From an uncultured Bacilli bacterium (GTDB taxonomy: Bacteria > Bacillota_I > Bacilli_A > RF39 > UBA660), in contig CAKORX010000001.1 in assembly GCA_934101645.1 (NCBI GenBank), positions 81,051-145,050 on the forward strand: a stretch of 64,000 nt of DNA. The letters run 5' to 3'. Below are positions 1-41,699 of this stretch, piece by piece. Position 1 is the first letter of the stretch. Every line of letters begins with the position of its first letter. The notes under the pieces are model-generated. The model worked only from the letters and a program-made list of their open reading frames with translations, was not told the DNA's origin and did no database searches. The position numbers and the translations under genes are program-made.

Positions 1-1226
1 TCATAAGAAACATATTTATTAAAATTATCTACGCTAATAACAGGTATTTTTGCTTCAAGATAATTTTTATTTTTTTCAATAAAATAACTATCTTTAACAT
101 TTAAAAGTCCAAATATATTACTAACACTATACATAATAAATGCACCAGATGCAAAAAATCCAAGTAAAAGTAATTTCTTTATAAATGAATAATCAAGAAT
201 TTTTTTAAATCCTAAATGTACTACTTTAAAAATATTAAATATCGAAGAGTATTTATGTTTTTCATTTTTGTTTTCTTTAATATCAAATTCATATTTTTCA
301 TAAATAGATTTATCAATCTGTTTATAATGATCATTTATGAACTCTACACTAGAGTTTTCATCAACAGCAATAATTCTTTCATTGCCTTCGGTTTTTATAT
401 AAATATTATTATTTTTAACTACTAAAGTAATTTTTGATTTTATTTTATCGTCTGCATAAATATTAATACTATTATTTTCTTCCTTAAATTTGAAATCTTT
501 TAAATAAATTTTATTATCAATCTTATAATCTAAAGAATTTTCATGTTTATTTTTATAATCATTTACTATCTTACCATCAGAAAGTTCAATTATTCTATCT
601 GCATAAAATTTAGCAATATCAGTTTCATGAGTAACTAATATAACTAATCTATTTTTTGAAATAGATTTAATAATATTCATTATTTCAATAGTATTTTGAC
701 TATCTAAATTTCCCGTAGGTTCATCTGCTAAAATGATGCTAGGATTTTTTACTAGTGCTCTTGCTATAGCAACTCTTTGCTTTTCACCACCAGAAAGCAT
801 TCCCGCAGGTCTATTTCGATAACGATAAATTTTAAGCGTTTCTAAAATATCATTTACTCTTTTTTGAATTTCATTTTTGTTTTTTATACCAATCATTTTT
901 AGTGATATAGCAACATTTTCAAATACACTTAAGTTTTCTAATAAGTTATAATTTTGAAATATATAACCTATATTTAAATTTCTTTCTTTATCAACATAAT
1001 ATGTACTTTTTCTAGTAACCCTTTTTCCGTTTACAAAAATACTTCCACTCTTTACTTTGTCAAGACCTCCGATAACATTTAAAAGTGTTGTTTTTCCACA
1101 TCCCGAAGGTCCTAAAAGACAAACGAGTCCATTATCTTCGAAAGTAGTCGAAGTATTATCTATAACATGTAATTCATTTTTCTTATGTCTATTAAAATAT
1201 TTATTTACTTTTTCTAACTTTATCAT
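1..1226 (-). CDS. ABC transporter ATP-binding protein fused to a membrane domain (MacB/FtsX-like). The gene is partial and its 3' end lies beyond the window start.
   Basis: Reverse-strand translation from the ATG at 1226..1224 gives [11 protein letters not shown]...[20 protein letters not shown] (Walker A). An LSGGQ-type signature region lies around 700-800 and a hydrophobic TM segment near 100-200. The ATG overlaps the stop codon of the upstream gene. No stop is present in the window. Confidence 0.6.
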
Positions 1227-3448
1227 TATATTTCCTCGTCTCTATATGTTTTCATCGCTGATGATTTAAATAATTTTCTTGAATATCTTAATGAAATAAG
1301 TAAGCTCATTACAAAGCAAACTAAATAAACTATTATATAATCTTTTAAAGTTAAATAATTAATCATATCACTTAAAGTCGGAGAATTTATAATATCTTTT
1401 GAAATTAAAACGATAAATGAAATAACTAAAATGTATGCAATATGATAAACAGTAAATAGTTCAATACTAATCATATTTTTTAACACTTTTTTCGTAGCTC
1501 CTAAAATACGTAAAGTTGCATAATAAACATTTCTAGATTTTTCAATTATTCTAATAACAAAATATGCGACGAAAAATAGTACTATAAATAAAAATGCCAC
1601 TGCAACTACTTTAAATATTTTCAAAACCTCAGAAACGCCATAATTTAAACTTACTTTAACATCTTTTATATATAATGCTTGATATTCACTTTTATCTAAA
1701 TATTTTTTTACACTTTGAATATTTTTTACATCATCTACAAATACGGATACTTGATAATTTCCTTTATTAAATAAACTATTATAATCATCATTTGATATAT
1801 ATATAACAAAGTTATTATTATCATAGTCTTTAATATTTACTAAACCATAAAAATTATTTTTCGTATAAACTTCTGATACATTTAATTTAACTGAATTTTC
1901 ATAATACTGATTTTTTACTTTTATAGAAAGTTCGTTATTAATGCAGTTACCATAATTACAATAATTATTTAATTGATATGGAATATAAGCATTACCTGGT
2001 TTTACATTCTCGTTAGGTCTAAATACTACATATATTTCTTTATTATTAAGTAGCATTTTTATATTACTATAATCAACATTTGCACAAGTTTTTATATTAT
2101 TTAAAAGCTTATCACTTGCATAAAATGTTTCATTTTCTGATAAACTATTTGTCAAAATAAGTCCAGTTACTTTAACATTTTCTACGCATGATGAAGCATT
2201 TTTTGAACTCGTAGAAAATAAATTATAATTAGTATTTAATATATCTTCTTTAGAGTTAGTTACATAGTAATTATTTTTATATATTTTCATTACTACTTCA
2301 TTATCATTTTCAGGCATTTTACCAATTATTTTTTCATTAATATCGCTGGCTTCTTTGAAAAAGCCATAAAACCAATAAGAGTTACTATTGTCTGTTAAAT
2401 AATATTCCTTGTCTAAAATAATATCATTCAAATTAACTTTTTTTACATGCTCTAATTTTTTTAGTTTTTCTATATCACTATCAGAAATATAACTATTATC
2501 TTTCTTTTTTAAAACAATTCTTTCATCAGATAAATCCCTAAAATAATAATTATAGCCTAATTTATTTGCCTCATATTCAGAAACTCTAATAGATGAATAT
2601 TCTCCGAAAAAAGCTAAAGTAATAAGTAAAAATACAATTAAAAGTAAGATAAATTTCATTGGAATGTTAAAAGTATTTCTTACACCAAGTCTAATTTTAT
2701 TAAAAAAGCTAATTCCTTTATACTCGTGAATAGTCAAAGTACTTTTATTATATTCTTTTAAAGTTATATCTTCCCTAACCTTACCATCACTCATCTCTAT
2801 TTTTCTCGTAGCATATTTTTCTACTTCATCATAATTATGAGTAACTATAATAACTAGTTTATCTTTTGCAACCTCAGATAAAATTCTTATAACGCTTTGA
2901 CTAGAACGACTATCAAGATTTCCCGTAGGTTCATCGGCAATAATAATTGGCACATCTTTTGCAAGTGCACGAGCAATAGCAACTCTTTGTTTTTGACCAC
3001 CAGATAAATGGGATACTTTTGTATTACGATATTTATACAAATCAACTTTTTTAATTAAATCTAGAATTTTTTTCTTTACATCTTTTTTCTTAAATCCATT
3101 TAAAAGAAGTACTAATTCAATATTTTGATATACTGTATAACTTGATACTAAATTAAATGATTGAAAGATATTTCCTATATAGCATTTACGATAATTTTCA
3201 ATATCCTCGCTACTATAATGGCTTGTTTCCTTGCCATTAATATACATTTCTCCTTCTTCATAAGTATCAAGGCCAGATAGTACATTTAAAAGTGTAGACT
3301 TTCCAGAACCACTTTCTCCGGTAATAACCACAAACTCTCCTAAAAAAAATTCAAGTGAAACTTTACTAAATCCCGAAGAAACCATTCCTTTGTTATAATA
3401 AAACTTGCTAACTTTATCAAGCTTTAAAATGGGTTTTTCTGTTTTCAT
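1226..3448 (-). CDS. ABC transporter ATP-binding protein with a C-terminal FtsX-like permease domain (MacB-like fusion)
   Basis: 740-aa ORF with Walker A GESGSGKST, signature LSGGQKQR and Walker B IIIADEPT. Its C-terminal half has a TM segment, a long extracytoplasmic domain and 3 further TM segments, typical of FtsX/MacB. Confidence 0.85.
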   Translation of the reverse strand: MKTEKPILKLDKVSKFYYNKGMVSSGFSKVSLEFFLGEFVVITGESGSGKSTLLNVLSGLDTYEEGEMYINGKETSHYSSEDIENYRKCYIGNIFQSFNLVSSYTVYQNIELVLLLNGFKKKDVKKKILDLIKKVDLYKYRNTKVSHLSGGQKQRVAIARALAKDVPIIIADEPTGNLDSRSSQSVIRILSEVAKDKLVIIVTHNYDEVEKYATRKIEMSDGKVREDITLKEYNKSTLTIHEYKGISFFNKIRLGVRNTFNIPMKFILLLIVFLLITLAFFGEYSSIRVSEYEANKLGYNYYFRDLSDERIVLKKKDNSYISDSDIEKLKKLEHVKKVNLNDIILDKEYYLTDNSNSYWFYGFFKEASDINEKIIGKMPENDNEVVMKIYKNNYYVTNSKEDILNTNYNLFSTSSKNASSCVENVKVTGLILTNSLSENETFYASDKLLNNIKTCANVDYSNIKMLLNNKEIYVVFRPNENVKPGNAYIPYQLNNYCNYGNCINNELSIKVKNQYYENSVKLNVSEVYTKNNFYGLVNIKDYDNNNFVIYISNDDYNSLFNKGNYQVSVFVDDVKNIQSVKKYLDKSEYQALYIKDVKVSLNYGVSEVLKIFKVVAVAFLFIVLFFVAYFVIRIIEKSRNVYYATLRILGATKKVLKNMISIELFTVYHIAYILVISFIVLISKDIINSPTLSDMINYLTLKDYIIVYLVCFVMSLLISLRYSRKLFKSSAMKTYRDEEI

Positions 3449-3554: not shown

Positions 3555-4370
3555 ATGAAGAAAAGAAAGTTAAATAAAAAAAATTTATTTTTGCTTATAT
3601 TTTTTGTTTTAATGTTTTTTACTTTTATACTTAGTTTAGTAAAAATTTTTATGTGGGTAATAGATAATAAAAAAACTGATAAAATTATAAAAGTTGCTAG
3701 TAATATTACAGAAATTACAGAAACAAAAAGTGATAATGAAGTAATTATAGAAACGAAAAGCAAAACTAATGCTTATTTTGAATATATTAAAATGAATTTA
3801 ATTGATGTAGATCTTGATAAATTAAAAAAATATAACGAAGATACTGTGGGCTGGCTTAAAGTCGAAGGCACCAATATAAACTACCCTTTTGTTCAAACTG
3901 ATAATAATGAGGATTATTTAACTAAATCTTTTGATAAAACATTTAATTATGCTGGATGGATATTTTTAGATTATCGAAATAGTTATCTATCACTTGATAA
4001 AAATACAGTTATTTATGGACACGGAAGAGTAAATGGAACAATGTTTGGTTCTTTAAAAGATACATTAAGACCATCATGGCAAAATAATGAAGAAAACTAC
4101 ATAATAAGAATGTCTACAGAAAAAATTAAGACTATGTGGCAAATATTTAGTACTTATAAAATACCCACTACTAACGATTATATTAAAACAAGCTTTACTA
4201 GTGATGAAGAATTTATAAATTTTTTAGAAACTATAAAAAATCGTTCTGAATTTAATTTTAATGTAGACCTTCAAAGTAATGATAAAATTCTTACTCTTTC
4301 AACTTGTTATAATGATACAGAAAAAATGGTAGTTCATGCAAAATTAATTAAATATGAAATTAAGTCATAA
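3555..4370 (+). CDS. srtB: Class B sortase
   Basis: N-terminal TM. SrtB-type motif VGWLKVEGTNINYPFVQTDNNEDYL...GWIFLDYRN, His in VIYGHG, and active-site TLSTC near the C-terminus. Confidence 0.8.
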   Translation: MKKRKLNKKNLFLLIFFVLMFFTFILSLVKIFMWVIDNKKTDKIIKVASNITEITETKSDNEVIIETKSKTNAYFEYIKMNLIDVDLDKLKKYNEDTVGWLKVEGTNINYPFVQTDNNEDYLTKSFDKTFNYAGWIFLDYRNSYLSLDKNTVIYGHGRVNGTMFGSLKDTLRPSWQNNEENYIIRMSTEKIKTMWQIFSTYKIPTTNDYIKTSFTSDEEFINFLETIKNRSEFNFNVDLQSNDKILTLSTCYNDTEKMVVHAKLIKYEIKS

Positions 4371-4403
4371 AAAAAATGCGTAATATTTTACGCAATTTTT
4401 TTT
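4371..4403. terminator. Bidirectional intrinsic terminator between the convergent sortase and adhesin genes
   Basis: A7-TGCGTAA-tatt-TTACGCA-T9: a 7-bp stem with a 4-nt loop, flanked by an A-run and a T-run. Confidence 0.65.
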
Positions 4404-7400
4404 AGTTTTCTTTTTTTCTTAAAAGTACACTAGCACCTAAAGCATTTACTAAAGTAAGCATAATATAAATGCTTCCATTACTTGTAGTGTGTGGTGGAAG
4501 AGGTTCTTCATCTGGAACAATTACACCTTTTCCATCAGTTTTATAATAAACATTTATAATATTATCTTTTTCAGTAATCTTTAAAGGTAAGTTTTCTACC
4601 ATTTCAAGTACATAGTCAGTAGTAGATTTATCAGTATAACTTTCAATTACATCGCCATAGAAGGCATCAAATGTATCAGTTTTTGTTTCATCTAAAACTC
4701 TATCATAATAATATCTAACTTCGTAAGTATATTTACCTTTTACATAGTAAACATCAATTACATCGCCATCTTCGAAAGTTTCAGAAATAGCACTTGGATT
4801 TGTTTTATCAAATACAAAACCTACATATTTATTTGTTACGTTAATTTTGTTAATATCTACTTTTCCTGTAGTTTCTAATACCTGTACCATTTTAGTTACT
4901 TTTTCTGTATCACTAGTTTGTAAAACACCATCTTTATAGTAATTTACTGTATAGCTAATTTCTTTTGTTTGACTTTCATCAAGAATATAATATACTTTTA
5001 TAACTTCACCTGTTTTAATTTCATCAGGTATAATACTTGGATTAGATTCTTTGAATCTATATCCTACATATTTATCTTTAGTATTAATTTCAAATTTATT
5101 TACTGTTAAATTATCACTTTCTAATACTTGTACTGTTTTTGTTACTACTTGTGTATCTTTTGTTTGAAGTACACCATCTATGTAGTATTCAACTGTATAT
5201 GTTAATTCTTTTACTTTACTTTCATCAGTAACATAATAAACATCTATTACATCTCCATCTTCGAAAACTTCTGGAATAGAACTTGGATTAGTCTTATCAA
5301 ACTTATATCCAAAATATTTATTTGTTACATTGATTTTGCTAGTTTCTACTTTTCCTGTAGTTTCTAGAACTTGTACTGTCTTAGTTACTTTTTCTATATC
5401 ACTAGTTTGTAAAACACCATCTTTATAGTAATTTACTGTATAACTAATTTCTTTTGTTTGACTTTCATCAAGAATGTAATATACTTTTATAACTTCACCT
5501 GTTTTAATTTCATCAGGTATAATACTTGGATTAGATTCTTTGAATCTATATCCTACATATTTATCTTTAGTATTAATTTCAAATTTATTTACTGTTAAAT
5601 TATCACTTTCTAATACTTGTACTGTTTTTGTTACTACTTGTGTATCTTTTGTTTGAAGTACACCATCTATGTAGTATTCAACTGTATATGTTAATTCTTT
5701 TACTTTACTTTCATCAGTAACATAATAAACATCTATTACATCTCCATCTTCGAAAACTTCTGGAATAGAACTTGGATTAGTCTTATCAAACTTATATCCA
5801 AAATATTTATTTGTTACATTGATTTTGCTAGTTTCTACTTTTCCTGTAGTTTCTAGAACTTGTACTGTTTTTGTTATTTTTTCTATATCACTAGTTTGTA
5901 AAACACCATCTTTATAGTAATTTACTGTATAGCTAATTTCCTTTGTTTGACTTTCATCAAGAACATAGTAAACATCAATTACGTCTCCATTTTTGAAAGT
6001 TTCAGGAATAACACTAGGATTAGTTTTATCAAATTTATAACCAACATATTTGTTTGTTACATTAATTTTACTAATGTCTACTTTTCCTGTAGTTTCTAAA
6101 ACTTGTATTGTCTTAGTTACTTTTTCTGTATCACTAGTTTGTAAAACACCATCTTTATAGTAATTTACTGTATAACTAATTTTTTTTGTTTGAGTTTCAT
6201 CTGCAACATAATAAACTTTTATTACGTTTTCTTTTTCAGAACTTATGGCAGAAGTTTTATCTGGAGTAGCTTTATCAAATTTATAACCATATTTTGTATT
6301 AGCTTTAATTTTTTCATCAGTTACACCAAATTCTTTACCTTTTGCAAGTGTGCCTGTTTCTGTTAAATCTGCATCTTTAACATTATTATAATAATATTCG
6401 ATAGTATAATCGTATTTATCTACTTCCCAATATACTTCAGGATTTTCATCACAAGTAATAGTTTTTTCATTACCTTGTGAATCAGTATAACTTAAAGTAA
6501 ATCCAGCATTTGTGGCATACCAACCATCATCAGTAATTTTGTCTTCATCAATTGTAATATCAAATGAGAATACTTTACCTTTTTCTGTAATGTCAAATTT
6601 TTCACTTGTATAAGTTTTGCCTTGAGCGTCTGTCATTACAAATTTTGCACCAATATTATCAGTTAAAGTTGCATTAGTACCAGCATCAGCTTTACCTATT
6701 ATAGTGGCAATATCAGTAAATTTATTTACAATTGTTGTAGGATCTGATAAATATACATGATCTGCACCTGAAGCTACTTCACTTAGTATTGTACCATTGT
6801 AATCATATCCAATAGCAAATACTTCAGCGCTTTTTTGAACTGTTTTAGCCATTTCTTTTGTCTTGGCTTCAGTAGTAGCGTCCATGTATGAGCCTGGACC
6901 TTGTGTATAACCGTCTTCATCATAATATAATGTTGGTTCACCATCACTTATTACAACAACATATTTAATAGCGTCTTTTTTTACATTTGATGCTGTTAAT
7001 AATTTATTTGCTTCATAAAGTCCAGCATGTAAGTTTGTTCCACCCTTTGGTGTTCCAAATTTTACATTAGAGAAATCTTTATTATCGAAATCTCTTAAAA
7101 CTTTAGCATCATTATAGGCATTATCAAATATTCCTAAAAAACCATCTTCATCAGCAAATGTTACAAGAGCAATCTTTGCGTTTGGTAATTTTTTATGTAA
7201 TGTTGAAGCAAATGTTTTTGCACCATTAACAGCGCTTGTCCATTTTTCATCTTTAGAGCAATTATAACTATTACACATAGAATTAGATTTATCAAGAACT
7301 ACAACAGCATAAACATCTTTTTTATTTGAAGTTTCTGTTTTAACACTTTTACCTTTTACTTCAAAGGTAACATTGTATTTACCCTCTACATCAGTTTTAG

Positions 7401-7593
7401 ATACTGTTTTAGTAACTTGCACATCACCATCTTCAGCTAAACTACCTTTAGTTACAGTAACACTTTTATTACTAATTTGATTACCTAATCTTAAATCACC
7501 TTTCTGTTCTTTATATTCTGCAAAAACCATAGTTGAAACTACTACTGCAACAAGAACAATTGCACTAGCAAAAAAATATTTTAGTTTTTTCAT
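4402..7593 (-). CDS. Cell-wall-anchored adhesin with a signal peptide, a vWA domain with MIDAS motif, tandem MucBP-like repeats and a C-terminal sorting signal
   Basis: 1063 aa. Signal peptide MKKLKYFFASAIVLVAVVVSTMVFA. DxSxS MIDAS motif in VVVLDKSNSMC. Eight to nine units of ~81 aa with the pattern YTVxYYxDGVLQT...NKYxGYKF...VYYV. The C-terminus is PLPPHTTSNG followed by a hydrophobic stretch and RKKEN, a noncanonical sortase signal. Confidence 0.8.
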   Translation of the reverse strand: MKKLKYFFASAIVLVAVVVSTMVFAEYKEQKGDLRLGNQISNKSVTVTKGSLAEDGDVQVTKTVSKTDVEGKYNVTFEVKGKSVKTETSNKKDVYAVVVLDKSNSMCNSYNCSKDEKWTSAVNGAKTFASTLHKKLPNAKIALVTFADEDGFLGIFDNAYNDAKVLRDFDNKDFSNVKFGTPKGGTNLHAGLYEANKLLTASNVKKDAIKYVVVISDGEPTLYYDEDGYTQGPGSYMDATTEAKTKEMAKTVQKSAEVFAIGYDYNGTILSEVASGADHVYLSDPTTIVNKFTDIATIIGKADAGTNATLTDNIGAKFVMTDAQGKTYTSEKFDITEKGKVFSFDITIDEDKITDDGWYATNAGFTLSYTDSQGNEKTITCDENPEVYWEVDKYDYTIEYYYNNVKDADLTETGTLAKGKEFGVTDEKIKANTKYGYKFDKATPDKTSAISSEKENVIKVYYVADETQTKKISYTVNYYKDGVLQTSDTEKVTKTIQVLETTGKVDISKINVTNKYVGYKFDKTNPSVIPETFKNGDVIDVYYVLDESQTKEISYTVNYYKDGVLQTSDIEKITKTVQVLETTGKVETSKINVTNKYFGYKFDKTNPSSIPEVFEDGDVIDVYYVTDESKVKELTYTVEYYIDGVLQTKDTQVVTKTVQVLESDNLTVNKFEINTKDKYVGYRFKESNPSIIPDEIKTGEVIKVYYILDESQTKEISYTVNYYKDGVLQTSDIEKVTKTVQVLETTGKVETSKINVTNKYFGYKFDKTNPSSIPEVFEDGDVIDVYYVTDESKVKELTYTVEYYIDGVLQTKDTQVVTKTVQVLESDNLTVNKFEINTKDKYVGYRFKESNPSIIPDEIKTGEVIKVYYILDESQTKEISYTVNYYKDGVLQTSDTEKVTKMVQVLETTGKVDINKINVTNKYVGFVFDKTNPSAISETFEDGDVIDVYYVKGKYTYEVRYYYDRVLDETKTDTFDAFYGDVIESYTDKSTTDYVLEMVENLPLKITEKDNIINVYYKTDGKGVIVPDEEPLPPHTTSNGSIYIMLTLVNALGASVLLRKKEN
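4720..6180. repeat. In-frame tandem repeats of about 243 bp, organised as a 489-bp higher-order unit, inside the adhesin gene
   Basis: 4962..5450 and 5451..5939 are near-identical at nucleotide level. For example, the same 60-mers recur at 5110 and 5598, and at 5221 and 5709. Two further single units lie at 4720..4962 and 5940..6180. Confidence 0.85.
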
Positions 7594-7745
7594 AAACCAA
7601 AACCCTCCCGATGGTTTACTATACTACCATACAAAAATATTATTGTCAATTAACATTTTCCTTTCTCTAGTAGTATAGAAATAATTATTCAAATTTATAC
7701 GAAAAAATAACCAAATTTTGGAAAATTTGATTATTTTTAAATTAT

Positions 7746-8450
7746 TTATTTAATTCTATATGGATTACCTAAACTTCCACTTCCAATAAGTTCAATGCTA
7801 GTATCCAGATTCAAGAGCGGACGGACCGAGCCAAGACTGCCGACGAAGATGTCGCCGCCGCCGTTGCCATCCGAACTGACATCGAAAGCGCTGCTGCCAT
7901 TAAGAGAACCCGGCGAAAGAGTCCATTCGAGTCCAGCCGAATAATCATTGCCAGAAACATTGTCCCAAAATGTTTTATCAAATTTTTTATTATATAACCA
8001 ATTTTGTGTTGAACACTTTTCCGTATTTACATAACTTGGAACTGTATCATCATTTGCCCAGCTTACCACACTTCTATCACAATCGTTTGCCATTACTCCA
8101 TACATATAATCGCTTGGATACATTAATCCTACTTTTGCATATGTATATGTTGGATTCCCCTCATAAACAACGCCATATTTTTCGCTATTATTAAATATTT
8201 GGGCTTGTGGCCAATATTCATTATATTTTCCTGTACTAAGGTCTAGTGAATTTAATGACCATCTTGTACTTAGTACTTTATCAATATGATTATAACTATT
8301 TAAGCTTGTTAAATATGTTCCATTTAATAGAGCCTTAAGTGATGAATTATTCCAATTATTCTTTCTATTTGTATCCCATGCTATACCACTTGATGTGTAA
8401 TTTGTAGATTTAATTATCCTTATTACTGGCTGAAGTTTTGTGTTTGTTTC
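7746..8450. repeat. Roughly 700-bp near-identical direct repeat, copy 1 of 2, covering the 3' halves of the tandem paralog genes
   Basis: 7750..~8450 matches 9563..~10263 at an offset of 1813 bp. Only a few substitutions near the stop codon, and divergence rises beyond ~8450. Confidence 0.85.
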
Positions 8451-9356
8451 GCTTGTTCCAACCTTTTCATCAAATACACCAATTATTCTAAAAGTATTAT
8501 CTTCGGCACATGTACCAGATGAATTATTATCTAAACATATATAATTATCTGGATCTTTGCCTTCATACCTATAACCGTTCTCATTTGCTACTAGATACTT
8601 TGTGGATGAATCTTGACTTGATGTTTTTAATCCTTCATTTGCTATACTTTTTATAAAGTCTTCGGCATCTGGGGTTACTGCTTCACATTTTAAATTCTCA
8701 GCATATATTTTACCAGTAAAGGCTTTACCCGCAAGTTGAGACTGATTTGCATTTAAATTATAATATCTAGCAGTTATTTTAAATGTTTGAGTACTTTGAG
8801 TACCACCATTATTTGTTATTCTTGCACCAGTTGCAAGTTTTATTTTTGCACCAGTTGTACTAGTTTTAGCTATCCATCCTTTTGAAGTATTATAATCAAT
8901 GTTTGCCTCTCCACCAAAAGGATTATTACTTCCTGTCGGGCCCTCAACTTCAAAAGTTATTTCTTTATTTGCATTACTTGTTTTAGTTGTAGGACTTTGT
9001 CCATATACATTTGAACTTGAATTATATTCAAATGCTATATCATATGTACACCTTGTACTTATATTAGTTGTTCCTAATAAAGATACATTAATTGTTGCTG
9101 TATTTTCTGCAACAGCAACTGTATTATTTGAATCAAAATTAGTCATATTTGCTCCAGGTACTTGTAAATTTAATGTTGAACTACTTGTGGTAAATGATGA
9201 ATTACCCGGAGAGACAGCATTAATATTTACTACTACATTGCCATTTAAGTTTGTATTAAATGATCCGAAAAAAGCAAATGTTGCGGATACTACTACAACA
9301 ACTAATATTAATAATGCGATAATTGAATAAATATTTATCTTTATATTATTTTTCAT
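7746..9356 (-). CDS. Secreted or surface protein of unknown function, paralog 1. It has an N-terminal signal/anchor and is Cys-containing.
   Basis: 536-aa ORF. The N-terminal hydrophobic segment is followed by SATFAFFGSFN. The C-terminal ~300 aa are identical to those of the downstream paralog. Confidence 0.7.
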   Translation of the reverse strand: MKNNIKINIYSIIALLILVVVVVSATFAFFGSFNTNLNGNVVVNINAVSPGNSSFTTSSSTLNLQVPGANMTNFDSNNTVAVAENTATINVSLLGTTNISTRCTYDIAFEYNSSSNVYGQSPTTKTSNANKEITFEVEGPTGSNNPFGGEANIDYNTSKGWIAKTSTTGAKIKLATGARITNNGGTQSTQTFKITARYYNLNANQSQLAGKAFTGKIYAENLKCEAVTPDAEDFIKSIANEGLKTSSQDSSTKYLVANENGYRYEGKDPDNYICLDNNSSGTCAEDNTFRIIGVFDEKVGTSETNTKLQPVIRIIKSTNYTSSGIAWDTNRKNNWNNSSLKALLNGTYLTSLNSYNHIDKVLSTRWSLNSLDLSTGKYNEYWPQAQIFNNSEKYGVVYEGNPTYTYAKVGLMYPSDYMYGVMANDCDRSVVSWANDDTVPSYVNTEKCSTQNWLYNKKFDKTFWDNVSGNDYSAGLEWTLSPGSLNGSSAFDVSSDGNGGGDIFVGSLGSVRPLLNLDTSIELIGSGSLGNPYRIK

Positions 9357-9533
9357 ACTACCCTTTTCTCTTTCATAAATACGATATCCATTATTTCAAA
9401 AACTATTACATTTAGAAATAACTCTATCTTATTTTTGTACCATTATAAATATATTTTATCATACTTTCATATTAAATAATATAAATTTTCATTAAATCAC
9501 ATATTTTTTTATAAATGTTTAACTTAATTTTAT

Positions 9534-9558
9534 AAAAAAAGCACATAATGTGCTAAAA
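9534..9558 (-). terminator. Intrinsic terminator downstream of paralog 2
   Basis: The minus strand reads GCACA-tta-TGTGC followed by T7, with an A7 run on the other side. Confidence 0.6.
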
Positions 9559-10263
9559 TTATTTAATTCTATACGGATTGCTTAAACTTCCACTTCCAAT
9601 AAGTTCAATGCTAGTATCCAGATTCAAGAGCGGACGGACCGAGCCAAGACTGCCGACGAAGATGTCGCCGCCGCCGTTGCCATCCGAACTGACATCGAAA
9701 GCGCTGCTGCCATTAAGAGAACCCGGCGAAAGAGTCCATTCGAGTCCAGCCGAATAATCATTGCCAGAAACATTGTCCCAAAATGTTTTATCAAATTTTT
9801 TATTATATAACCAATTTTGTGTTGAACACTTTTCCGTATTTACATAACTTGGAACTGTATCATCATTTGCCCAGCTTACCACACTTCTATCACAATCGTT
9901 TGCCATTACTCCATACATATAATCGCTTGGATACATTAATCCTACTTTTGCATATGTATATGTTGGATTCCCCTCATAAACAACGCCATATTTTTCGCTA
10001 TTATTAAATATTTGGGCTTGTGGCCAATATTCATTATATTTTCCTGTACTAAGGTCTAGTGAATTTAATGACCATCTTGTACTTAGTACTTTATCAATAT
10101 GATTATAACTATTTAAGCTTGTTAAATATGTTCCATTTAATAGAGCCTTAAGTGATGAATTATTCCAATTATTCTTTCTATTTGTATCCCATACTATACC
10201 ACTTGATGTGTAATTTGTAGATTTAATTATCCTTATTACTGGCTGAAGTTTTGCGTTTGTTTC
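9559..10263. repeat. Roughly 700-bp near-identical direct repeat, copy 2 of 2
   Basis: See copy 1. It includes the same GC-rich 150-bp patch at 9614..9763. Confidence 0.85.
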
Positions 10264-11169
10264 GCTTGTTCCAACCTTTTCATCAAATACACCAATTATT
10301 CTAAATGTATTATCTTCAGCACATGTACCAGATGAATTATTATCTAAACATATATAATTATCTGGATCTTTGCCTTCGTATCTATAACCGTTCTCATTTG
10401 CAACAATATATTTTGTAGATGTATCTTGACTTGATGTTTTTTCACCTTCAGCAGCTATATTTTTTATAAAGTCTTCGGCATCTGGTGTTACACCTTCACA
10501 AACTGGATTTTCTGCATAAACTTTTCCAACGAAATTTTTACTATCAAGTTGTGATTGTGACACCTCTAAATTATAGTATCTTGCGGTAATCTTCCAACTT
10601 TGAGTGTTTGGAGTGCTACTATTATTTGTAATTCTTGCACCAGTTGCAAGTTTTATTTTTGCTCCTTTTGTGCTAGTTTTAGCTATCCATCCTTTTGCTA
10701 TGTCATAATCAATATTTGTTTCTGCTCCAAAAGGATTAGTTTCACCGATTGGACCTTCAACTTCAAAAGTTATTTCTTTATCTGCACCACTTGTTTTAAT
10801 TGTTGGACTTTGTCCATATACACTTGAATTTAAATCGTATTCAAAAACTATATCATAAGTACATCTTGTGCTAAGTTCTGATGATCCCGTTAAAGTTACA
10901 TTTAATATTGCACTATTTTCTGCTGCTGCTACCCTATTATTTGCAACAATTTCACTCATATTTCCAGAGCGAACAAACAAATTTAAGATTGAACTATCTG
11001 ATACAAGTGATGAACTTCCTGGTGATGCTGCATTTATATTTACCGCTATATTACCATTTAAATTTTCATTAAATGAACCAAAATATGCAAATGCCGCAGA
11101 TACTACTATAATAAGTAACATTACTATTGCAAAAATTGAATATATATTTACCTTTACTTTATCTTTCAT
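9559..11169 (-). CDS. Secreted or surface protein of unknown function, paralog 2
   Basis: 536-aa ORF. The N-terminal half is ~60% identical to paralog 1 and the C-terminal half is identical. N-terminal motif SAAFAYFGSFN follows the hydrophobic segment. Confidence 0.7.
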   Translation of the reverse strand: MKDKVKVNIYSIFAIVMLLIIVVSAAFAYFGSFNENLNGNIAVNINAASPGSSSLVSDSSILNLFVRSGNMSEIVANNRVAAAENSAILNVTLTGSSELSTRCTYDIVFEYDLNSSVYGQSPTIKTSGADKEITFEVEGPIGETNPFGAETNIDYDIAKGWIAKTSTKGAKIKLATGARITNNSSTPNTQSWKITARYYNLEVSQSQLDSKNFVGKVYAENPVCEGVTPDAEDFIKNIAAEGEKTSSQDTSTKYIVANENGYRYEGKDPDNYICLDNNSSGTCAEDNTFRIIGVFDEKVGTSETNAKLQPVIRIIKSTNYTSSGIVWDTNRKNNWNNSSLKALLNGTYLTSLNSYNHIDKVLSTRWSLNSLDLSTGKYNEYWPQAQIFNNSEKYGVVYEGNPTYTYAKVGLMYPSDYMYGVMANDCDRSVVSWANDDTVPSYVNTEKCSTQNWLYNKKFDKTFWDNVSGNDYSAGLEWTLSPGSLNGSSAFDVSSDGNGGGDIFVGSLGSVRPLLNLDTSIELIGSGSLSNPYRIK

Positions 11170-11207
11170 AGTAATATTTTAACACATTTCAAATTATATA
11201 GGAATAT

Positions 11208-11229
11208 AAAAAAAGCACAAAATGTGCTA
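11208..11229 (-). terminator. Intrinsic terminator after sortase gene 2. It overlaps the sortase TAG stop and lies only ~40 bp upstream of paralog 2.
   Basis: The minus strand reads GCACA-ttt-TGTGC followed by T7. The same stem sequence occurs in the terminator at 9534..9558. Confidence 0.55.
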
Positions 11230-11952
11230 AATAATTTCTTTTGCTATAACAAGCATATATTTATTTTTATATTTACTATATTCTTTTAAGTTACTACATG
11301 TCTGAATTATTAATAAATTATCATTTGCATTTACATTTATACCTGTATCATAAAATGATTTATTTTTAAGTTTTTGATAATGTGCTTCTTTTTCTTCTTT
11401 AGAAGTATAATCTATTTTCATATAATCCCAATCTTTAGTTTCTACGTATGCAGAAAAGATTTGATATTTTCTTACTTTTTTAGTAGTAGAAATGTAAACA
11501 TACTGATGCTCTTTATAATAATCTTCATTTACATAATTTTCGATAATCATTATTGGAAGCATGTAATTCGGAGAACTATGACCAAATATTAAAAGTTTTT
11601 CACTTTCATCAATATCAACTCTATAATCTAAAAAGATTGAACCATTTATATTATATGTTTTATCTGGTAAATGATTTAAATAATAACTATTATCTTTTCC
11701 CTGCATTATAGCGGTATTAAAATCGGTATCATTAATTTGAATGGTTCCTACTACATCATCATTATTATATTCCTTTTTTAATGAAGTAATTTTTTCTTCA
11801 TATACTTCTTCTTTATTATCAGGTAAATCTTTTGTTACTAAAATAAAATTATCATATTTACCAACGTTATAATACTCTAAAACAAAATATACTGATAAAA
11901 CTGTAAGCACTATAACGGGAATTATTACTAATAGTTTATTAATAATTTTCAT
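11227..11952 (-). CDS. srtB: Class B sortase
   Basis: N-terminal TM. Motif VVGTIQINDTDFNTAIMQGKDNSYYLNH...NGSIFLDYR, His in LIFGHS, and active-site LIIQTC. Confidence 0.8.
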   Translation of the reverse strand: MKIINKLLVIIPVIVLTVLSVYFVLEYYNVGKYDNFILVTKDLPDNKEEVYEEKITSLKKEYNNDDVVGTIQINDTDFNTAIMQGKDNSYYLNHLPDKTYNINGSIFLDYRVDIDESEKLLIFGHSSPNYMLPIMIIENYVNEDYYKEHQYVYISTTKKVRKYQIFSAYVETKDWDYMKIDYTSKEEKEAHYQKLKNKSFYDTGINVNANDNLLIIQTCSNLKEYSKYKNKYMLVIAKEII

Positions 11953-23509: not shown

Positions 23510-23884
23510 TTAATTTTCATTATTCATATTGTATTTTTCTACTCTTTTAATGCATTTTGAACTTTTTGGTTTAGTAAAACATTCCATACAAACATCATAA
23601 TCATTTTTTACAGCATCAAAACCAGTTATCAAAGGATATATTCCATTCATAATACTAGGCAAAAAGAATATTACTACTGCAATAATAAATTTATTTATAA
23701 GTGATTTAATACCCTTTTTTATTTCTTTATCATCATCAGAAATAACTGCTTTTCCTAAAGTTAAAATACCCATTACAATTAACACTATTGGAAGTAAAAT
23801 TTTAACAATTATAAGTATATATCCTAAATTTTGCCATACAGTAATTGTACTTTGGCAAAAACCATTTTCAGTCCCAAGTCCCAT
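23510..23884 (-). CDS. Small 2-TM membrane protein with a Cys-rich C-terminal tail, paralog of the next gene. Function unknown.
   Basis: 124 aa. Two hydrophobic helices are separated by the charged loop SDDDKEIKKG. The C-terminus carries the motif CMECFTKPKSSKC. Confidence 0.55.
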   Translation of the reverse strand: MGLGTENGFCQSTITVWQNLGYILIIVKILLPIVLIVMGILTLGKAVISDDDKEIKKGIKSLINKFIIAVVIFFLPSIMNGIYPLITGFDAVKNDYDVCMECFTKPKSSKCIKRVEKYNMNNEN

Positions 23885-23983
23885 ACAAATCTCCCCTTCA
23901 TTAAAAATATATCACTAACTATACCACATATTCAAAAAAAATACAAATAAAAAACCATTATCACTTAAGATAATGGTTAATTA

Positions 23984-24367
23984 TTAATTTCCTCCAGATA
24001 CAGGACATTTAGATTGTGGACTACCAATACATTCAACACAAACCATGTAATCAGGTTTAACGTCATTAAATCCATTTACTAAATTAAAACATGCAGTAAC
24101 GATATTTGGTAAAAAGAATATTACAACTGCCGCAATAAACTTAGTTATTAATCTATTAACTTGCGTTTTAATTTCCTTATCATCATCTGCAAGAACTGCC
24201 TTTCCAAGTCCAATAATTCCTAAAACGATTAAAACAACTGGAATAACAATTTTTAAAACTAAAACAATTCTTCCAACAAATTGCCAAACGTCAGCTGTTT
24301 GTGAGCAAAATCCGTCAGCACCGCCTAAAGTAGATGGATCAAAATCATCAAATAATCTCATATACAA
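23984..24367 (-). CDS. Small 2-TM membrane protein with a Cys-rich C-terminal tail. Function unknown, possibly a pilin-like accessory.
   Basis: 127 aa with the same architecture as the previous gene (loop LADDDKEIKTQ, C-terminal motif CVECIGSPQSKC). Its topology only superficially resembles VirB2/TrbC. Confidence 0.55.
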   Translation of the reverse strand: MYMRLFDDFDPSTLGGADGFCSQTADVWQFVGRIVLVLKIVIPVVLIVLGIIGLGKAVLADDDKEIKTQVNRLITKFIAAVVIFFLPNIVTACFNLVNGFNDVKPDYMVCVECIGSPQSKCPVSGGN

Positions 24368-24439
24368 CTCTCCTTTACATACCTATATTTTACCTTTTTT
24401 ATATATTTATGTCAATATTTACTACAAATAGTTTACAAG

Positions 24440-25438
24440 CTATCTAAAGATACTAAATCCAAAAGATTCTTTATCAGAAATTCTTGTAAAACCTAATTCT
24501 TTAAGTAACTTATTAATTATCTTGTTATCGTCAATTTTATCATCAACATTTGGTAAATTGAAAAATACTTTACTACCACTTTCTTTTTCAAAATCACTTA
24601 CATCGTTATCGTTTAATACACTACGATTTAAGATAATCTTTTTGCCTTTTAACTTTTCAAAAGCCTTATGATCTGTTTTAATTAATTTATTAAGCTGAAT
24701 AAGGCCAGGCTCAATTAAATAAATTATATCCGTACAATAAGAACTTGCATCAGCATTATTCATATCAATTATAATAACTTCAGCATCTTTATTACTTGCA
24801 TCATCTAAATATTTTTCTATATCAAAACTATTTACATTGCTTTTTAAATTACTATCATTAAAATAAACAAAATCGCTTTTATCTAGTTCTGCAGCTTTAA
24901 CTTTATATTCCTTTTCTAGATGTTTTTTTAATAAATAAGCAAGTGTAGTAGCACCAGCATGTTCAGTAACATTTTTAATACCTAAAACTCTTCTTCCAAT
25001 AAAACCAACACTTTTATCAACTGCTTTATCATTAAGTTTTCTTTCTTCAGCTGCCATATTCAAATTATGATAATTGGCAACATCTTTGTATGTATTTGGG
25101 TTATCTATTAAAAAAGGTATAGAATCTACATTTTTTGTAAAATTGTAAATACCCATTGATACAAGACTTGACAAATACATTGGTGAGTTTACCTTCGGAG
25201 AATCATCTAAAAGTAAAATTACTTTACTCATGTCAAGAGCTACTGACAAATCTTGAATTGTGTTAATATCCTCGTAATTTTCAAGTGCTGTAATATCTAA
25301 AATCATTCTATTGTAATAAAAATTTTTGAATTGAGATGCTAAATCATTTACCTCAAAAACCCCGTTTAAAGTTTTAATTACATCTATGCCTAAACCAGCA
25401 AGTAATGCTTCATTTTTATTTGAAATAATAACGTTCAT
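24440..25438 (-). CDS. TadZ/CpaE-like pilus-assembly protein with a MinD/ParA-type ATPase fold and a degenerate P-loop
   Basis: The N-terminus is a receiver-like domain. The central segment GIKNVTEHAGATTLAYLL aligns to the MinD P-loop region but lacks the Lys. The gene lies immediately downstream of the pilin genes, as in Tad loci. Confidence 0.5.
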   Translation of the reverse strand: MNVIISNKNEALLAGLGIDVIKTLNGVFEVNDLASQFKNFYYNRMILDITALENYEDINTIQDLSVALDMSKVILLLDDSPKVNSPMYLSSLVSMGIYNFTKNVDSIPFLIDNPNTYKDVANYHNLNMAAEERKLNDKAVDKSVGFIGRRVLGIKNVTEHAGATTLAYLLKKHLEKEYKVKAAELDKSDFVYFNDSNLKSNVNSFDIEKYLDDASNKDAEVIIIDMNNADASSYCTDIIYLIEPGLIQLNKLIKTDHKAFEKLKGKKIILNRSVLNDNDVSDFEKESGSKVFFNLPNVDDKIDDNKIINKLLKELGFTRISDKESFGFSIFR

Positions 25439-25449
25439 AAAAAACCTCC

Positions 25450-25968: not shown

Positions 25969-25974
25969 AACTTA

Positions 25975-27343: not shown

Positions 27344-27344
27344 A

Positions 27345-40043: not shown

Positions 40044-41699
40044 TTAATTATTTTTTCTTAATTTAGTAATTATATAGCCTATTGCCAAAATGCTTAACGT
40101 AAATGTTGTAAAGTATACAGTTATATTATCAAGTGTATTTGGATTACTTAAATTATCGCTTGCCAAAATGTAATTACTAAAATGATTTGTTTTAAATGAA
40201 AGATATTTAACTCCATCAACATTCGTCTGTTCAACCTTATATTTTTCAATACTTCCATCATCATTAATGTAAAGCATTACTAGTCCATCAGAACTTTTAT
40301 CATATGGAATTAATACTTCAGTAACATCATTAAAATTACTAATAATTTTATCTAAAATGTCTGAATATAATTTTAAACTATATCCATCTACTGTTTTATA
40401 ACCTTTTTTAGTAAGAATATTAATTTCTTCATCAGAAAGTTTATAATTATCACTTATTAATTTAGCATCTAAAGGAACATTACTAGCTTTTGTTTTTAAA
40501 ATTATTCCTGTTTTAGTATCTACTGATGAAATAACTCCAAATTTACTAGAGTACTCTTCAGGCATTTGTAAAATACCAATACAATATTTTTTATCATTAA
40601 CTGTAAGAACATAAGGAAGTGTTGTAATAAGTTCATCCTTATCTTTATAGTAATTAATTATGCTCTCATTACTACTACCAGATTTTAATTTTTCATATTC
40701 TTTTTCAAAATTAGTATTTACAAGTTCATAGTATTTCTTTGTATTAATTCCCATTGTAAGAAATAATACTTCTTCAACAGGAAGTGCTTCATTTTCCCAT
40801 TCTTCAATACTAAAATCACTTTCAACTTTAACATTAATATCTGGATTATTTATATATTTTTTTAAACTATCTTCTAAAACTTTTGCATAATCTTTTACAT
40901 CAGTTCCAACTGGTACATAAAACATATTTGATTGATAAAAGCCATTAAATGTAAAGCCATAGTAAATTCCATTATATTTTACAAATGTAAAACCATCAGC
41001 AATACCAGTAAGTGAAATACCTCTTCTTGTTTCTTCAAATGAAATTGAAAAATCAAAATCAGGATTTTTTTCAACAACATTTTTTACTTGAGCAAATTCT
41101 TTAAGTGATCTTTTCGGAGAAAAAAACGTAGTTGTATCACTTTCATAATTAATTAAATGATTTATCATATCTTTGTCTGCAACATTAAATGTTCCAAATA
41201 ATTCATTTGTTATTAAATCAACCTTTTTTGTAATATTTTCATTACCACTTACTTCTTCATAAGTTACATCTAATGTATATTTATCATGTACTTCATTTTC
41301 AAAGCTAGTGCCATAGTAAACCATTACTTCACAAAAATCTTTATCTGCAATCTGCATTGTATTACCATAATAATAATTATCACCTTTTCTATAACATGCA
41401 GTATCCATACCTAATACATTTTCAAAATCAACTATGTTATATAAGTCATCACGAAATAAGTATTCAAAAAATTTATTATTTAAAAATTCTTTTTCATAAT
41501 TACTGCCATCATATTCATTTGCCTTTAACCAATTATAATTTTTTTCAACCATTGAATCCAAATTTGTATACTTAAATGAAAATACATGGTTTTCCAAAAT
41601 ATTTTTATTTTCTCGCCTGCTTTCCTCAATTGTTTTTGCGTTAACACTAGTTATTAAAAACAAACTTACAAATAAAACTCTTAAAATTTTTTTCATCAC
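40044..41699 (-). CDS. Secreted surface protein with a candidate sortase-B-type sorting signal (NPNTL plus TM plus KLRKNN)
   Basis: Signal peptide MMKKILRVLFVSLFLITSVNA. The C-terminus reads LSNPNTLDNITVY, then a hydrophobic stretch, then KLRKNN. Confidence 0.55.
   Translation of the reverse strand: MMKKILRVLFVSLFLITSVNAKTIEESRRENKNILENHVFSFKYTNLDSMVEKNYNWLKANEYDGSNYEKEFLNNKFFEYLFRDDLYNIVDFENVLGMDTACYRKGDNYYYGNTMQIADKDFCEVMVYYGTSFENEVHDKYTLDVTYEEVSGNENITKKVDLITNELFGTFNVADKDMINHLINYESDTTTFFSPKRSLKEFAQVKNVVEKNPDFDFSISFEETRRGISLTGIADGFTFVKYNGIYYGFTFNGFYQSNMFYVPVGTDVKDYAKVLEDSLKKYINNPDINVKVESDFSIEEWENEALPVEEVLFLTMGINTKKYYELVNTNFEKEYEKLKSGSSNESIINYYKDKDELITTLPYVLTVNDKKYCIGILQMPEEYSSKFGVISSVDTKTGIILKTKASNVPLDAKLISDNYKLSDEEINILTKKGYKTVDGYSLKLYSDILDKIISNFNDVTEVLIPYDKSSDGLVMLYINDDGSIEKYKVEQTNVDGVKYLSFKTNHFSNYILASDNLSNPNTLDNITVYFTTFTLSILAIGYIITKLRKNN

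Follow-up and report, generated by a model that had tools for sequence, protein, structure and literature searches.

Two class B-type sortases flanking a vWA adhesin with a PPHTT sorting signal in an uncultured human gut bacterium

Gene content of the locus

Verified coordinates place a vWA adhesin gene (1063 aa), two genes for sortase-B-like enzymes, and two for 536-aa paralogs at positions 3555-11952 of the 64-kb stretch of DNA analysed here (the window), which comes from an uncultured bacterium of the human gut. The sortases, Srt1 (271 aa; 3555..4370, + strand) and Srt2 (241 aa; 11227..11952, - strand), are only 31% identical; their active sites read ...ILTLSTC... and ...LLIIQTC..., and they flank the adhesin gene, as a first-pass annotation of this DNA had described. 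That annotation also called both enzymes class B, and HMM classification agrees: for each, the best family is the NCBIfam "class B sortase" equivalog TIGR03064 (curated cut-off 153.75 bits), and every one of the 15 solved structures that it matches belongs to a class-B or SrtB-family enzyme, not to class A or C. Srt1, which has a membrane anchor at its N-terminus, passes the cut-off with 170.6 bits; its top structural match is S. aureus SrtB (E=1.4e-38), with residues 87-266 aligned to residues 32-213 of that enzyme. TIGR03064 is the best family for Srt2, yet its 120.4 bits fall below the cut-off; its top structural match is B. anthracis SrtB (E=3.6e-21), and its homologues are annotated as "class B sortase" by NCBI. 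The core alignments of both enzymes take in the SrtB N-terminal motif (pattern GW..NYP..Q..N..YL), which had been attributed to both: in Srt1, DTVGWLKVEGTNINYPFVQTDNNEDYL pairs with S. aureus DIVGWIKLSGTSLNYPVLQGKTNHDYL, but in Srt2 the motif is degenerate. Srt2 is best described, judging by sequence, as a divergent SrtB-like subfamily; its family of 173 proteins conserves QTCS and K-[Y/F].

The adhesin gene (4402..7593, - strand) encodes a signal peptide (7519-7593), a VWA_2 domain at residues 97-219 (6937-7305; PF13519, 38.8 bits against a cut-off of 27), eight tandem repeats of 76-82 aa each at residues 394-1028 (4510-6414), and a sorting signal (4405-4503), all on that strand. A MIDAS-type motif, DKSNS (DxSxS), occurs in VVLDKSNSM, with GGTNL and ISDGEPT further downstream. 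The protein is 900 or 1063 aa long depending on the strain, owing to differing repeat number, and has no sequence relative in the PDB. It had been described as a vWA+MucBP-repeat adhesin, and the first half of that description stands. However, neither the whole adhesin nor three single repeats matched Pfam MucBP (PF06458), even at E<=10. The predicted structure of the repeat (pLDDT 74) has a MucBP domain (3q69), an InlB B-repeat, and Mub repeats as its top fold matches, at E=0.06-0.4 and with 0 matches at or below E 0.001, which would make the repeats MucBP-like in fold at best.

Paralog a (7746..9356, - strand) combines a hydrophobic N-terminal helix, whose end carries the conserved motif SATFAFFGSF, with a beta-sandwich domain and a lectin-like domain at the C-terminus. 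Paralog b (9559..11169, - strand), ~85% identical to a (about 84-86%) and nearly identical in its C-terminal half, is probably a tandem duplicate. Both end in ...NPYRIK, without a hydrophobic or basic tail, in keeping with their earlier reading as secreted proteins that lack a C-terminal sorting signal. The N-terminus presumably resembles a SipW/TasA-type signal peptide; the model for that type, TIGR04088, gave no HMM match to it. DUF6273 (PF19789, gathering score 23.5 bits) matched neither window paralog, and P0001, which is 94% identical to a window 536-aa protein, scored 22.2 bits, just under the threshold; resemblance to this family is therefore marginal.

Srt1 and the adhesin gene converge on a bidirectional terminator-like hairpin (4377..4394; 7-bp stem, T-runs on both strands), and the terminator scan placed another hairpin, shared by the two sites, after both Srt2 (11228-11214) and paralog b (9554-9540). 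A promoter scan found a strong promoter-like site for Srt2 (12005-11976) and another belonging to the adhesin gene; given this site and the hairpin after Srt2, co-transcription of Srt2 and the adhesin gene is putative. On the other side of Srt1 lies a gene for a 740-aa fused ABC ATPase and FtsX-type permease (MacB-like; Pfam ABC_tran and FtsX; 1226..3448, - strand), whose position beside the module is conserved in related loci (L007, L013, L010-L032). It is a neighbour by position, and any functional tie to the module is putative.

None of the six proteins encoded between 1226 and 11952 matched a NEAT or heme-transport family of Pfam or NCBIfam, no recognisable pilin gene is present at the locus, and exactly one gene in 3555-11952 carries a sorting signal. 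The locus is therefore neither an Isd-type heme-uptake SrtB locus nor a sortase-C pilus locus, as the first-pass annotation had concluded; the latter is also ruled out by the SrtB-only model matches of both sortases.

Conservation of the module and its sorting signals

We compared the locus with about 100 related loci, the material covered being the 64-kb window and 10-kb flanks; the genome may encode further sortases beyond these limits. The conserved core consists of Srt2, the vWA gene immediately downstream of it, and Srt1 close by. A distance of 133-265 bp separates Srt2 from the vWA gene, on the same strand, in L013, the locus of a sister species, and in loci of another genus (L010, L024, L026, L027, L030-L032), and several samples of the window species (L104-L107) share the window arrangement. 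Srt1 lies 31 bp from the adhesin 3' end in the window and in L013, and 3.9-6 kb from it in L010 and L015; a sortase pair flanking one substrate is found in at least two genera. The two 536-aa genes had been presented as members of the locus and are present in the window, but they are variable cargo, not core: the sister species and the majority of L010-genus loci lack them, copy number per locus is 0, 1, or 2, and family members occupy three different positions around the module (window, L007, L030), while most lie elsewhere in genomes, usually far from any sortase.

The adhesin ends in PLPPHTTSNGSIYIMLTLVNALGASVLLRKKEN, that is, PLPPHTT, a hydrophobic stretch, and RKKEN, as had been read from the C-terminus before. 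The PPHTT pentapeptide (residues 1033-1037; 4483..4497, - strand) is followed by SNGSIY and the hydrophobic stretch, so that together with the N-terminal signal peptide the protein has a full cell-wall sorting signal: PPHTT, SNGSIYIMLTLVNALGASVLL, and RKKEN. A 551-aa secreted protein encoded at 40044..41699 (- strand), a candidate substrate of Srt1, ends in SNPNTLDNITVYFTTFTLSILAIGYIITKLRKNN and likewise has a full signal: NPNTL (40131-40145) with the following D, the hydrophobic segment DNITVYFTTFTLSILAIGYIIT, and KLRKNN. NCBIfam sorting-signal models matched neither tail. Adhesin orthologues in the other genus, 73-85% identical over the N-terminal 400 residues, keep PPHT[T/S] at the same expected spacing to the hydrophobic segment. 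Relative to [S/P]-P-x-T-G, the adhesin motif P-P-H-T-T and the P-P-H-T-S of its orthologues have Gly replaced.

Distant members of the Srt2 family (43-52% identity) adjoin secreted proteins with LPPQTG (L020, vWA; L021, Cna_B), VPPQTG (L113), or NPPYTG (L114), proteins whose domains (vWA, Cna_B, and others) are unrelated. The exception is a member in L023 (38% identity) that adjoins an NPTTS protein. A PPxT[G/T/S] neighbour was found in 6/7 Srt2-family lineages versus 0/8 lineages in which an Srt1-like gene stands alone (Fisher p=0.0014, for lineages that are not fully independent). Lone Srt1-like genes (49-67% identity, no Srt2 nearby) instead have an xPxTx-D protein within 1 kb, with the motifs NPKTY-D, NPPTY-D, NPNTL-D, VPQTF-D, TPDTY-D, VPNTY-D, NPQTS-D, and NPTTS-D. 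The NPNTL-D protein of the window and an NPNTG protein in L007 fit this class, and in L097, L015, and L050 Srt1-like genes have homologues of the former, with NPNTL, NPNTI, or NPNTG, beside or near them. We infer from gene neighbourhood only that PPxT probably belongs to Srt2 and NPxTx-D to Srt1. Thus both motifs that the first-pass annotation put forward as candidates, PPHTT and NPNTL, hold up, but probably as signals for different sortases and not as alternatives. It called the substrate motif of these sortases undefined; motifs of both kinds have precedents. C. difficile SrtB acts on PPKTG and SPKTG, cutting between T and G (PMC4155245), and NPQTN and NPXTG are the typical signals of classical SrtB enzymes, with flanking residues also important (PMC11987632).

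Catalytic residues of Srt1 and Srt2

The catalytic His and Thr-Cys are present in Srt1 (His156, 4020-4022; TLSTC with Cys251, 4293-4307) and in Srt2 (His125, 11578-11580; IIQTC with Cys219, 11296-11310). Family alignments show these residues to be invariant or nearly so across both families (for Srt2, His125, Gln-Thr-Cys-Ser, and Lys231 in an alignment of 32 of the 173 members) and the remaining SrtB core to be conserved, which argues for both enzymes being active. The canonical catalytic Arg of the last strand (R233 of S. aureus SrtB) is absent from both. In Srt1 its column holds Lys257 (4323-4325; E-K-MVVHAK versus K-R(233)-IVVVAK in S. aureus), and this column is Lys in 120/120 of the closest Srt1 homologues, in 30 of 150 representatives of 50%-identity clusters (114 have Arg), and in 62 of 78 distinct locus ORFs (the other 16 have Arg). 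Replacement of the catalytic Arg by Lys is thus recurrent in the Srt1 clade. In Srt2, phmmer and hhalign, the latter against the Arg of the Srt1 clade, align Tyr232 (Lys231-Tyr232, 11257-11262) with the Arg; across the family this residue is Tyr or Phe, and it follows a nearly invariant Lys, replaced by Arg in P0446. Presumably Lys takes over the role of Arg in both enzymes; the substitution could also mean reduced or altered activity.

Reviews describe the Arg as a triad residue of every sortase (PMC8225981, with "all sortases contain His-Cys-Arg"; PMC11987632). The locus varies known systems in other respects, but its two sortases lack this residue. The first-pass annotation does not mention the absence.

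A possible division of labour and its alternatives

We favour, with a probability of roughly 0.6, a reading in which the locus is a module that anchors one large adhesin to the cell wall and lies next to a second, more general sortase, with a division of labour between the two enzymes. The adhesin would be exported through its signal peptide and kept in the membrane by the C-terminal hydrophobic segment and RKKEN tail, and Srt2, as a dedicated sortase encoded just upstream on the same strand, would cut it after the Thr of PPHT|T (predicted substrate peptide EEPLPPHTTSNGS) and join it to peptidoglycan. The vWA head, which the eight beta-grasp-like repeats would hold out as a stalk, may then bind a ligand in a metal-dependent manner. 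The two 536-aa genes that separate Srt2 from the adhesin gene in the window species would be an insertion. Srt1, whose gene converges with that of the adhesin, is likeliest an NPxTx-type sortase B of general role that would anchor, for example, the NPNTL protein encoded at 40044-41699.

The Srt2-adhesin pairing would be comparable to C. difficile SrtB with its (S/P)PxTG substrates or to the streptococcal AbpA-SrtB pair. The C. difficile system (PMC4155245, PMC8225981) likewise joins a class B sortase to adhesin-type substrates outside heme uptake, and its motif begins with Pro-Pro or Ser-Pro (PPKTG), not Leu-Pro or Asn-Pro, as do PPQTG and PPYTG beside Srt2-family genes and PPHTT in the window. 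However, the SrtB of C. difficile is its only one, a housekeeping enzyme with a canonical His-Cys-Arg triad and dispersed substrates, whereas the window has two SrtB-like enzymes without the Arg, a PPxT substrate beside its putative sortase, and Thr or Ser in place of Gly at position 5. In oral streptococci, a dedicated class B sortase is encoded beside one non-LPXTG adhesin, AbpA, and cleaves between Thr and a non-Gly residue (LPKT|S; PMC4974636), but the AbpA signal, LPKTSAVK, has no hydrophobic segment or charged tail, unlike the full tripartite signal of the window adhesin. Membership in the AbpA-type SrtB family was rejected: against NF040525 ("LPKTxAVK-specific", cut-off 200 bits) Srt1 scores 76.7 and Srt2 43 bits, and the locus has no LPKTxAVK protein. 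Srt1 shares the TIGR03064 equivalog and its closest solved relative with Isd-type SrtB (S. aureus, B. anthracis, Listeria; NPQTN or NPKTG), and its clade shares NPxTx signals in neighbouring genes and the frequent placement of the sortase beside its substrate; it differs in the absence of NEAT-domain and heme-transport genes, in large substrates of uncharacterised function, in a position 5 that is often bulky (Tyr, Phe, Leu), and in Lys for Arg. The S. pyogenes pilus sortase Spy0129/SrtC (PMC3019223) is also a class B sortase at an adhesin locus, but the locus here encodes neither a backbone nor a base pilin that carries a sorting signal, and Spy0129 (3psq) is more distant from Srt1 (E=1.5e-22) and Srt2 (E=8.8e-11) than classical SrtBs are.

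Srt1 is physically linked to the adhesin gene and could therefore be its sortase, or a second one. That Srt1 anchors both the adhesin and NPNTx proteins while Srt2, having lost the catalytic Arg, is a weak, regulatory, or non-catalytic paralog seems unlikely to us, even though Srt1 adjoins the adhesin 3' end and reaches the curated SrtB threshold that Srt2 misses, Tyr occupies the Arg-aligned position of Srt2, and Cys-less pseudo-sortases occur among SrtB-like clusters (P0315, P0344, P0376, P0390). Srt1 likewise has no Arg, the Srt2 family keeps the other catalytic residues nearly invariant, and its members consistently lie beside a sorting-signal protein, as one would expect if the enzyme is active and dedicated. 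Pilus tip adhesins typically carry vWA domains, and vWA adhesins with a repeat stalk resemble the tip proteins of sortase-assembled pili. A pilus-like two-step process, with one sortase joining PPHT-Thr to a Lys of the adhesin or of a 536-aa protein and the other anchoring the product, would suit the placement of one substrate between two sortases and the three positions of 536-family genes around the module, and it has parallels in the S. pyogenes class B sortase that polymerises pilins (PMC3019223) and the AbpA ladders made by streptococcal SrtB (PMC4974636). We consider it improbable nonetheless: a single protein at the locus has a sorting signal and none is a recognisable pilin, L013 and most L010-genus loci lack the 536-aa genes, which are usually distant from sortases, and lone Srt1 relatives have different substrates of their own.

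It is more doubtful still that the neighbourhood is functionally meaningless, the interval between uvrB and the ABC transporter being a hot spot for surface genes and the adhesin being held by its C-terminal membrane segment. The varying content (0, 1, or 2 536-aa genes; differing repeat numbers), the promoter-like or terminator-like signals for each gene, and the other surface genes found at the same place in relatives would all be expected of such a hot spot. The division of labour between Srt2 and Srt1 accounts better for the conservation, in another genus, of PPHT[T/S] with the expected spacing to the hydrophobic segment, and for Srt2-family genes recurring beside PPxT proteins of unrelated domain content.

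The sortase-adhesin module and its conservation

The open reading frames that the first-pass annotation placed between positions 3555 and 11952 are present as described, namely Srt1 (3555-4370, + strand, 271 aa) and, on the - strand, a vWA adhesin (4402-7593, 1063 aa), two 536-aa paralogs designated a and b (7746-9356 and 9559-11169), and Srt2 (11227-11952, 241 aa). The locus is bordered by uvrB past Srt2 and by a fused ABC/FtsX transporter past Srt1. The G+C content of the window is ~27%, and its closest public relatives are the human-gut MAGs CAKOMR01 and CAKONC01, labelled "uncultured Bacilli bacterium." Two antisense ORFs opposite the 536-aa genes, at 8899-9330 (+, 143 aa) and 10868-11182 (+, 104 aa), are almost certainly not genes, because each lies entirely within longer ORFs and is of low complexity.

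Comparison of gene orders in a sister species, in another genus, and in samples of the same species identifies a conserved core of Srt2 and the adhesin gene behind it, with Srt1 close by, and shows the 536-aa genes to be variable insertions. In the sister species (locus L013), whose Srt1 and Srt2 are 93% and 97% identical to the window enzymes, the order is ABC-ABC-Srt1-adhesin-Srt2-uvrB and the 536-aa genes are wholly absent. The other genus (loci L010 and L024-L032; ~62% identity for Srt1, ~70% for Srt2) has the order Srt2-adhesin-ABC-FtsX-...-Srt1, with the adhesin 133 bp downstream from Srt2 on the same strand. Most of these loci also lack the 536-aa genes, and the idea that the latter are a fixed part of the module was rejected on these grounds. 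The order Srt2-536-536-adhesin-Srt1 recurs in several samples of the window's species, with a single 536-type gene on one contig. Another same-species locus, L007, seemingly lacks Srt2 and one 536-aa copy; upstream of its single 538-aa gene comes another region, which encodes an NPNTG protein plus RecD2. Either the paralog pair breaks or misjoins assemblies, or the region is truly rearranged in some strains; because several same-species metagenome contigs (L109-L112) stop within the second 536-aa gene, L007 was treated as possibly misjoined or rearranged and was not counted as evidence against the module.

MacB-like ABC/FtsX transporters (558-1226 and 1226-3448 in the window), often in at least two copies, persistently adjoin the module (L007, L013, L010). 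FtsX-type transporters also neighbor distant Srt2-family genes, and one such locus, L023, has four FtsX genes.

The architecture of the locus is ordinary for specialists and resembles the dedicated SrtB-adhesin pair AbpA-SrtB (PMC4974636). As had been proposed, it is not an Isd/heme-uptake locus, since NEAT and heme genes are absent, nor is it a sortase-C pilus locus, since class C sortases are absent and just one protein bears a sorting signal.

Active sites without arginine

His-Cys-Arg is given as the triad of all sortases in reviews and recent primary work (PMC8225981, PMC11987632, PMC4155245). A bolder reading, to which we assign a probability of roughly 0.45, is that both enzymes are active transpeptidases that manage without the catalytic Arg, by two natural solutions and with distinct specificities. 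The absence of this Arg is an unreported feature, and Arg-less sites with candidate substrates adjacent to them are unexpected.

Both enzymes had been assigned to class B, and the analysis placed neither in class A nor in class C. With 170.6 bits against the NCBIfam class B sortase model TIGR03064 (curated cut-off 153.75 bits), Srt1 is, Arg aside, a class B sortase by curated threshold. Srt2 scores 120.4 bits, under the cut-off, with TIGR03064 still its best family; falling short in both score and Arg, it represents a divergent SrtB-like subfamily. The solved structures that match Srt1 and Srt2 are of SrtB-type enzymes only, the best being S. aureus SrtB for Srt1 (E=1.4e-38) and B. anthracis SrtB for Srt2 (E=3.6e-21), and both enzymes score below the cut-off of the AbpA-type "LPKTxAVK-specific" SrtB model. 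The two are 31% identical and therefore old paralogs, not the products of a recent duplication.

Lys257 of Srt1 occupies the Arg column, where T-K-R233-I-V-V-V-A-K of S. aureus SrtB aligns with T-E-K257-M-V-V-H-A-K. This is not a sequencing oddity, because Lys recurs there in 120/120 of the closest homologues, in 30 of 150 representatives of 50%-identity clusters (114 have Arg, and the Cys is kept in all of these), and in 62 of 78 distinct Srt1-like ORFs from the loci retrieved, the other 16 having Arg. Lys and Arg alternate among close relatives of Srt1. Arg158 (GHGR), considered as a compensating residue, is nearly invariant in the clade, yet it is carried by Lys and Arg variants alike and is thus not a specific compensation. 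In the eight available adjacent pairs involving Srt1 relatives, the residue after the scissile Thr is Tyr, Phe, or Leu where the enzyme is Lys-type and Ser where it is Arg-type (6/0 versus 0/2, p=0.036), which at this number of pairs is only a hint of coupling between Lys/Arg and that residue (xPxT[Y/F/L]D versus NPxT[S/G]D).

Srt2 has Tyr232 opposite the Arg, behind a 6-residue insertion, by phmmer and by profile-profile hhalign (probability 100%), and its family consensus is QTCS-x5-Y-x2-Y-x-K-K-[Y/F]-L-L. The likeliest functional stand-in for Arg is Lys231, because it is nearly invariant in the family and is Arg in one member, P0446. At least 173 Srt2-family proteins are without the Arg, and in the sister clade Lys replaces Arg in one-fifth to four-fifths, depending on the sample. 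We infer that Srt1 and Srt2 are active enzymes, since both families keep His, Thr-Cys, and the remaining core and cognate-looking substrates adjoin. If the bolder reading is true, the His-Cys-Arg rule for sortases needs amending, and the two enzymes become candidate orthogonal "sortagging" tools; natural variants such as these make the role of the sortase Arg directly testable.

Four other SrtB relatives are pseudo-sortase-like, without catalytic Cys and without Arg (P0315, LTLITSY; P0344, LTISSNY; P0376, LTISTKV; P0390, LTLSTNF), and in many other SrtB-like representatives the sortase domain is preceded by an extra 100-340 aa at the N-terminus.

The adhesin and two sorting signals

The adhesin has a VWA_2 domain (Pfam, residues 97-219) carrying DKSNS, a DxSxS MIDAS motif, followed at residues 394-1028 by eight repeats of 76-82 aa each, encoded in a 243/489-bp tandem array. 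Its length differs among same-species strains (900 or 1063 aa). The repeats had been annotated as MucBP, a family assignment that did not hold: Pfam, run on the complete adhesin and on individual repeats with a threshold as loose as E<=10, matched neither MucBP nor any other family for the repeats, and the best Foldseek matches to an AlphaFold model of one repeat (pLDDT 74), namely a MucBP domain, the InlB B-repeat, and Mub repeats, reached only E=0.06-0.4. For both reasons we call the repeats beta-grasp or MucBP-like in predicted fold, not MucBP family members. Relatives of the adhesin with solved structures were not found by sequence. The source Bacilli turn up repeatedly in human gut metagenomes (Hadza and other cohorts), where dozens of contigs encode identical proteins. 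For such bacteria, a vWA adhesin that has its own sortase and a stalk differing among strains could plausibly act as a colonisation factor.

The C-terminus of the adhesin is a complete tripartite sorting signal, as the first-pass annotation had recognized: PLPPHTT, then SNGSIYIMLTLVNALGASVLL, then RKKEN. Its counterpart in the L010 genus ends EPPHTSANNSIY...KKREN, which reduces the element conserved across both genera to PPHT[T/S]. Within the 64-kb window, xPxTx signals occur only in the adhesin and in a secreted 551-aa NPNTL protein (40044-41699, -), and the only sortases are Srt1 and Srt2. An NCBIfam scan of both C-terminal tails matched no relevant sorting-signal model.

Neighbors were collected for relatives of each enzyme, those of Srt1 being drawn from genome loci and from 80 metagenome loci (49-62% identity). 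Srt2-family members at 43-52% identity directly adjoin secreted proteins ending LPPQTG (a 921-aa vWA protein in L020, a Cna_B protein in L021), VPPQTG (L113), or NPPYTG (L114); the neighbor of a member at 38% identity (L023) is an NPTTS protein. Srt1 relatives without Srt2 have a signal protein within 1 kb ending NPKTY, NPPTY, NPNTL, VPQTF, TPDTY, VPNTY, NPQTS, or NPTTS, with Asp directly after every motif. A PPxT neighbor accompanies 6/7 Srt2-family lineages versus 0/8 lone Srt1-like ones (Fisher p=0.0014), a small count in which lineages are not fully independent. Homologues of the NPNTL protein are encoded adjacent or close to Srt1-like genes in L097 (NPNTL), L015 (NPNTI), and L050 (NPNTG), and in the same-species L007 an NPNTG protein lies ~4.6 kb from Srt1.

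Because neighbor motifs differ between Srt2-family and lone Srt1-like genes, the survey points to two specificities, in which Srt2 would read PPxT[G/T/S] and Srt1 NPxTx-D. PPHTT and NPNTL, earlier named as candidate motifs for the sortases jointly, both stand but are apparently split, PPxT with Srt2 and NPxTx-D with Srt1. The adhesin and Srt2 would then have a signal like that of C. difficile, whose SrtB cleaves PPKTG and SPKTG (PMC4155245), and Srt1 beside them would be an SrtB of the classical NPxTx signal type (PMC11987632). Each enzyme has a defined candidate recognition sequence amenable to assay with peptides such as DEEPLPPHTTSNGS, LSNPNTLDNIT, and KKNPNTGAFY.

In L021, the large Cna_B protein with the LPPQTG end adjoins the Srt2-like gene, and there is a second, Arg-containing sortase (211 aa, ...TCYP...HRFVVYAEK) and a vWA-like 672-aa protein; the contig has a masked/N stretch. 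This may be a true pilus-type locus using an Srt2-family enzyme.

The 536-aa proteins and other surface genes

The 536-aa family comprises at least 2730 proteins at E<=0.001, with a conserved N-terminal hydrophobic helix ending A(S/T)FAYFG(S/T)F, and the paralogs matched no Pfam or NCBIfam family above threshold. In their AlphaFold model (pLDDT 70.7), a helix (3-29) precedes a beta-sandwich (41-226) and a C-terminal domain. The proteins probably have a binding role, either tethered to the membrane or secreted. They carry no C-terminal sorting signal, in agreement with the earlier annotation, and were rejected on that basis as sortase substrates in the usual sense. To the eye their N-termini resemble a SipW/TasA-type signal, a candidate dropped for want of a TIGR04088 match. 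Near-identical terminator-like hairpins at 11228-11214 and 9554-9540 (-), AGCACATT[T/A]TGTGCT followed by a T-run, lie directly 3' of Srt2 and paralog b; they are consistent with tandem duplication of an inserted gene and with being the borders of a ~1.8 kb duplication unit.

Genes of this family turn up repeatedly near the module (window, L007, L030, L022), and members at 34-39% identity lie away from any sortase, beside rpsB/tsf or a T2SSE ATPase. The member from a more distant genus (L004-L006) belongs to a small cluster of unannotated genes (69, 334, 174, and 65 aa) beside a T2SSE-type ATPase, a context that may point to an association with type IV-pilus-like or Com-like export.

Elsewhere in the window, a Tad/Flp-like pilus cluster (23510-35988, all -) encodes two small T4SS_pilin-like proteins (23510-23884, 23984-24367), a CpaF-like T2SSE ATPase (28260-29402), an RcpC/CpaB-like protein (29425-30270), a DUF5411 plus Peptidase_C39_2 protein (30315-31463), a 1261-aa secreted protein with no family match (31476-35261), and a C-terminally anchored 241-aa protein (35263-35988). 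A DUF5411/C39 homologue directly adjoins Srt2 in L010. Two secreted proteins with cadherin-like beta-sandwich domains are encoded at 44712-48086 (-), and in one of these (46131-48086, -) they are accompanied by SH3_3 and, at the C-terminus, by a type I dockerin, a domain that is unusual outside cellulosome-type systems.
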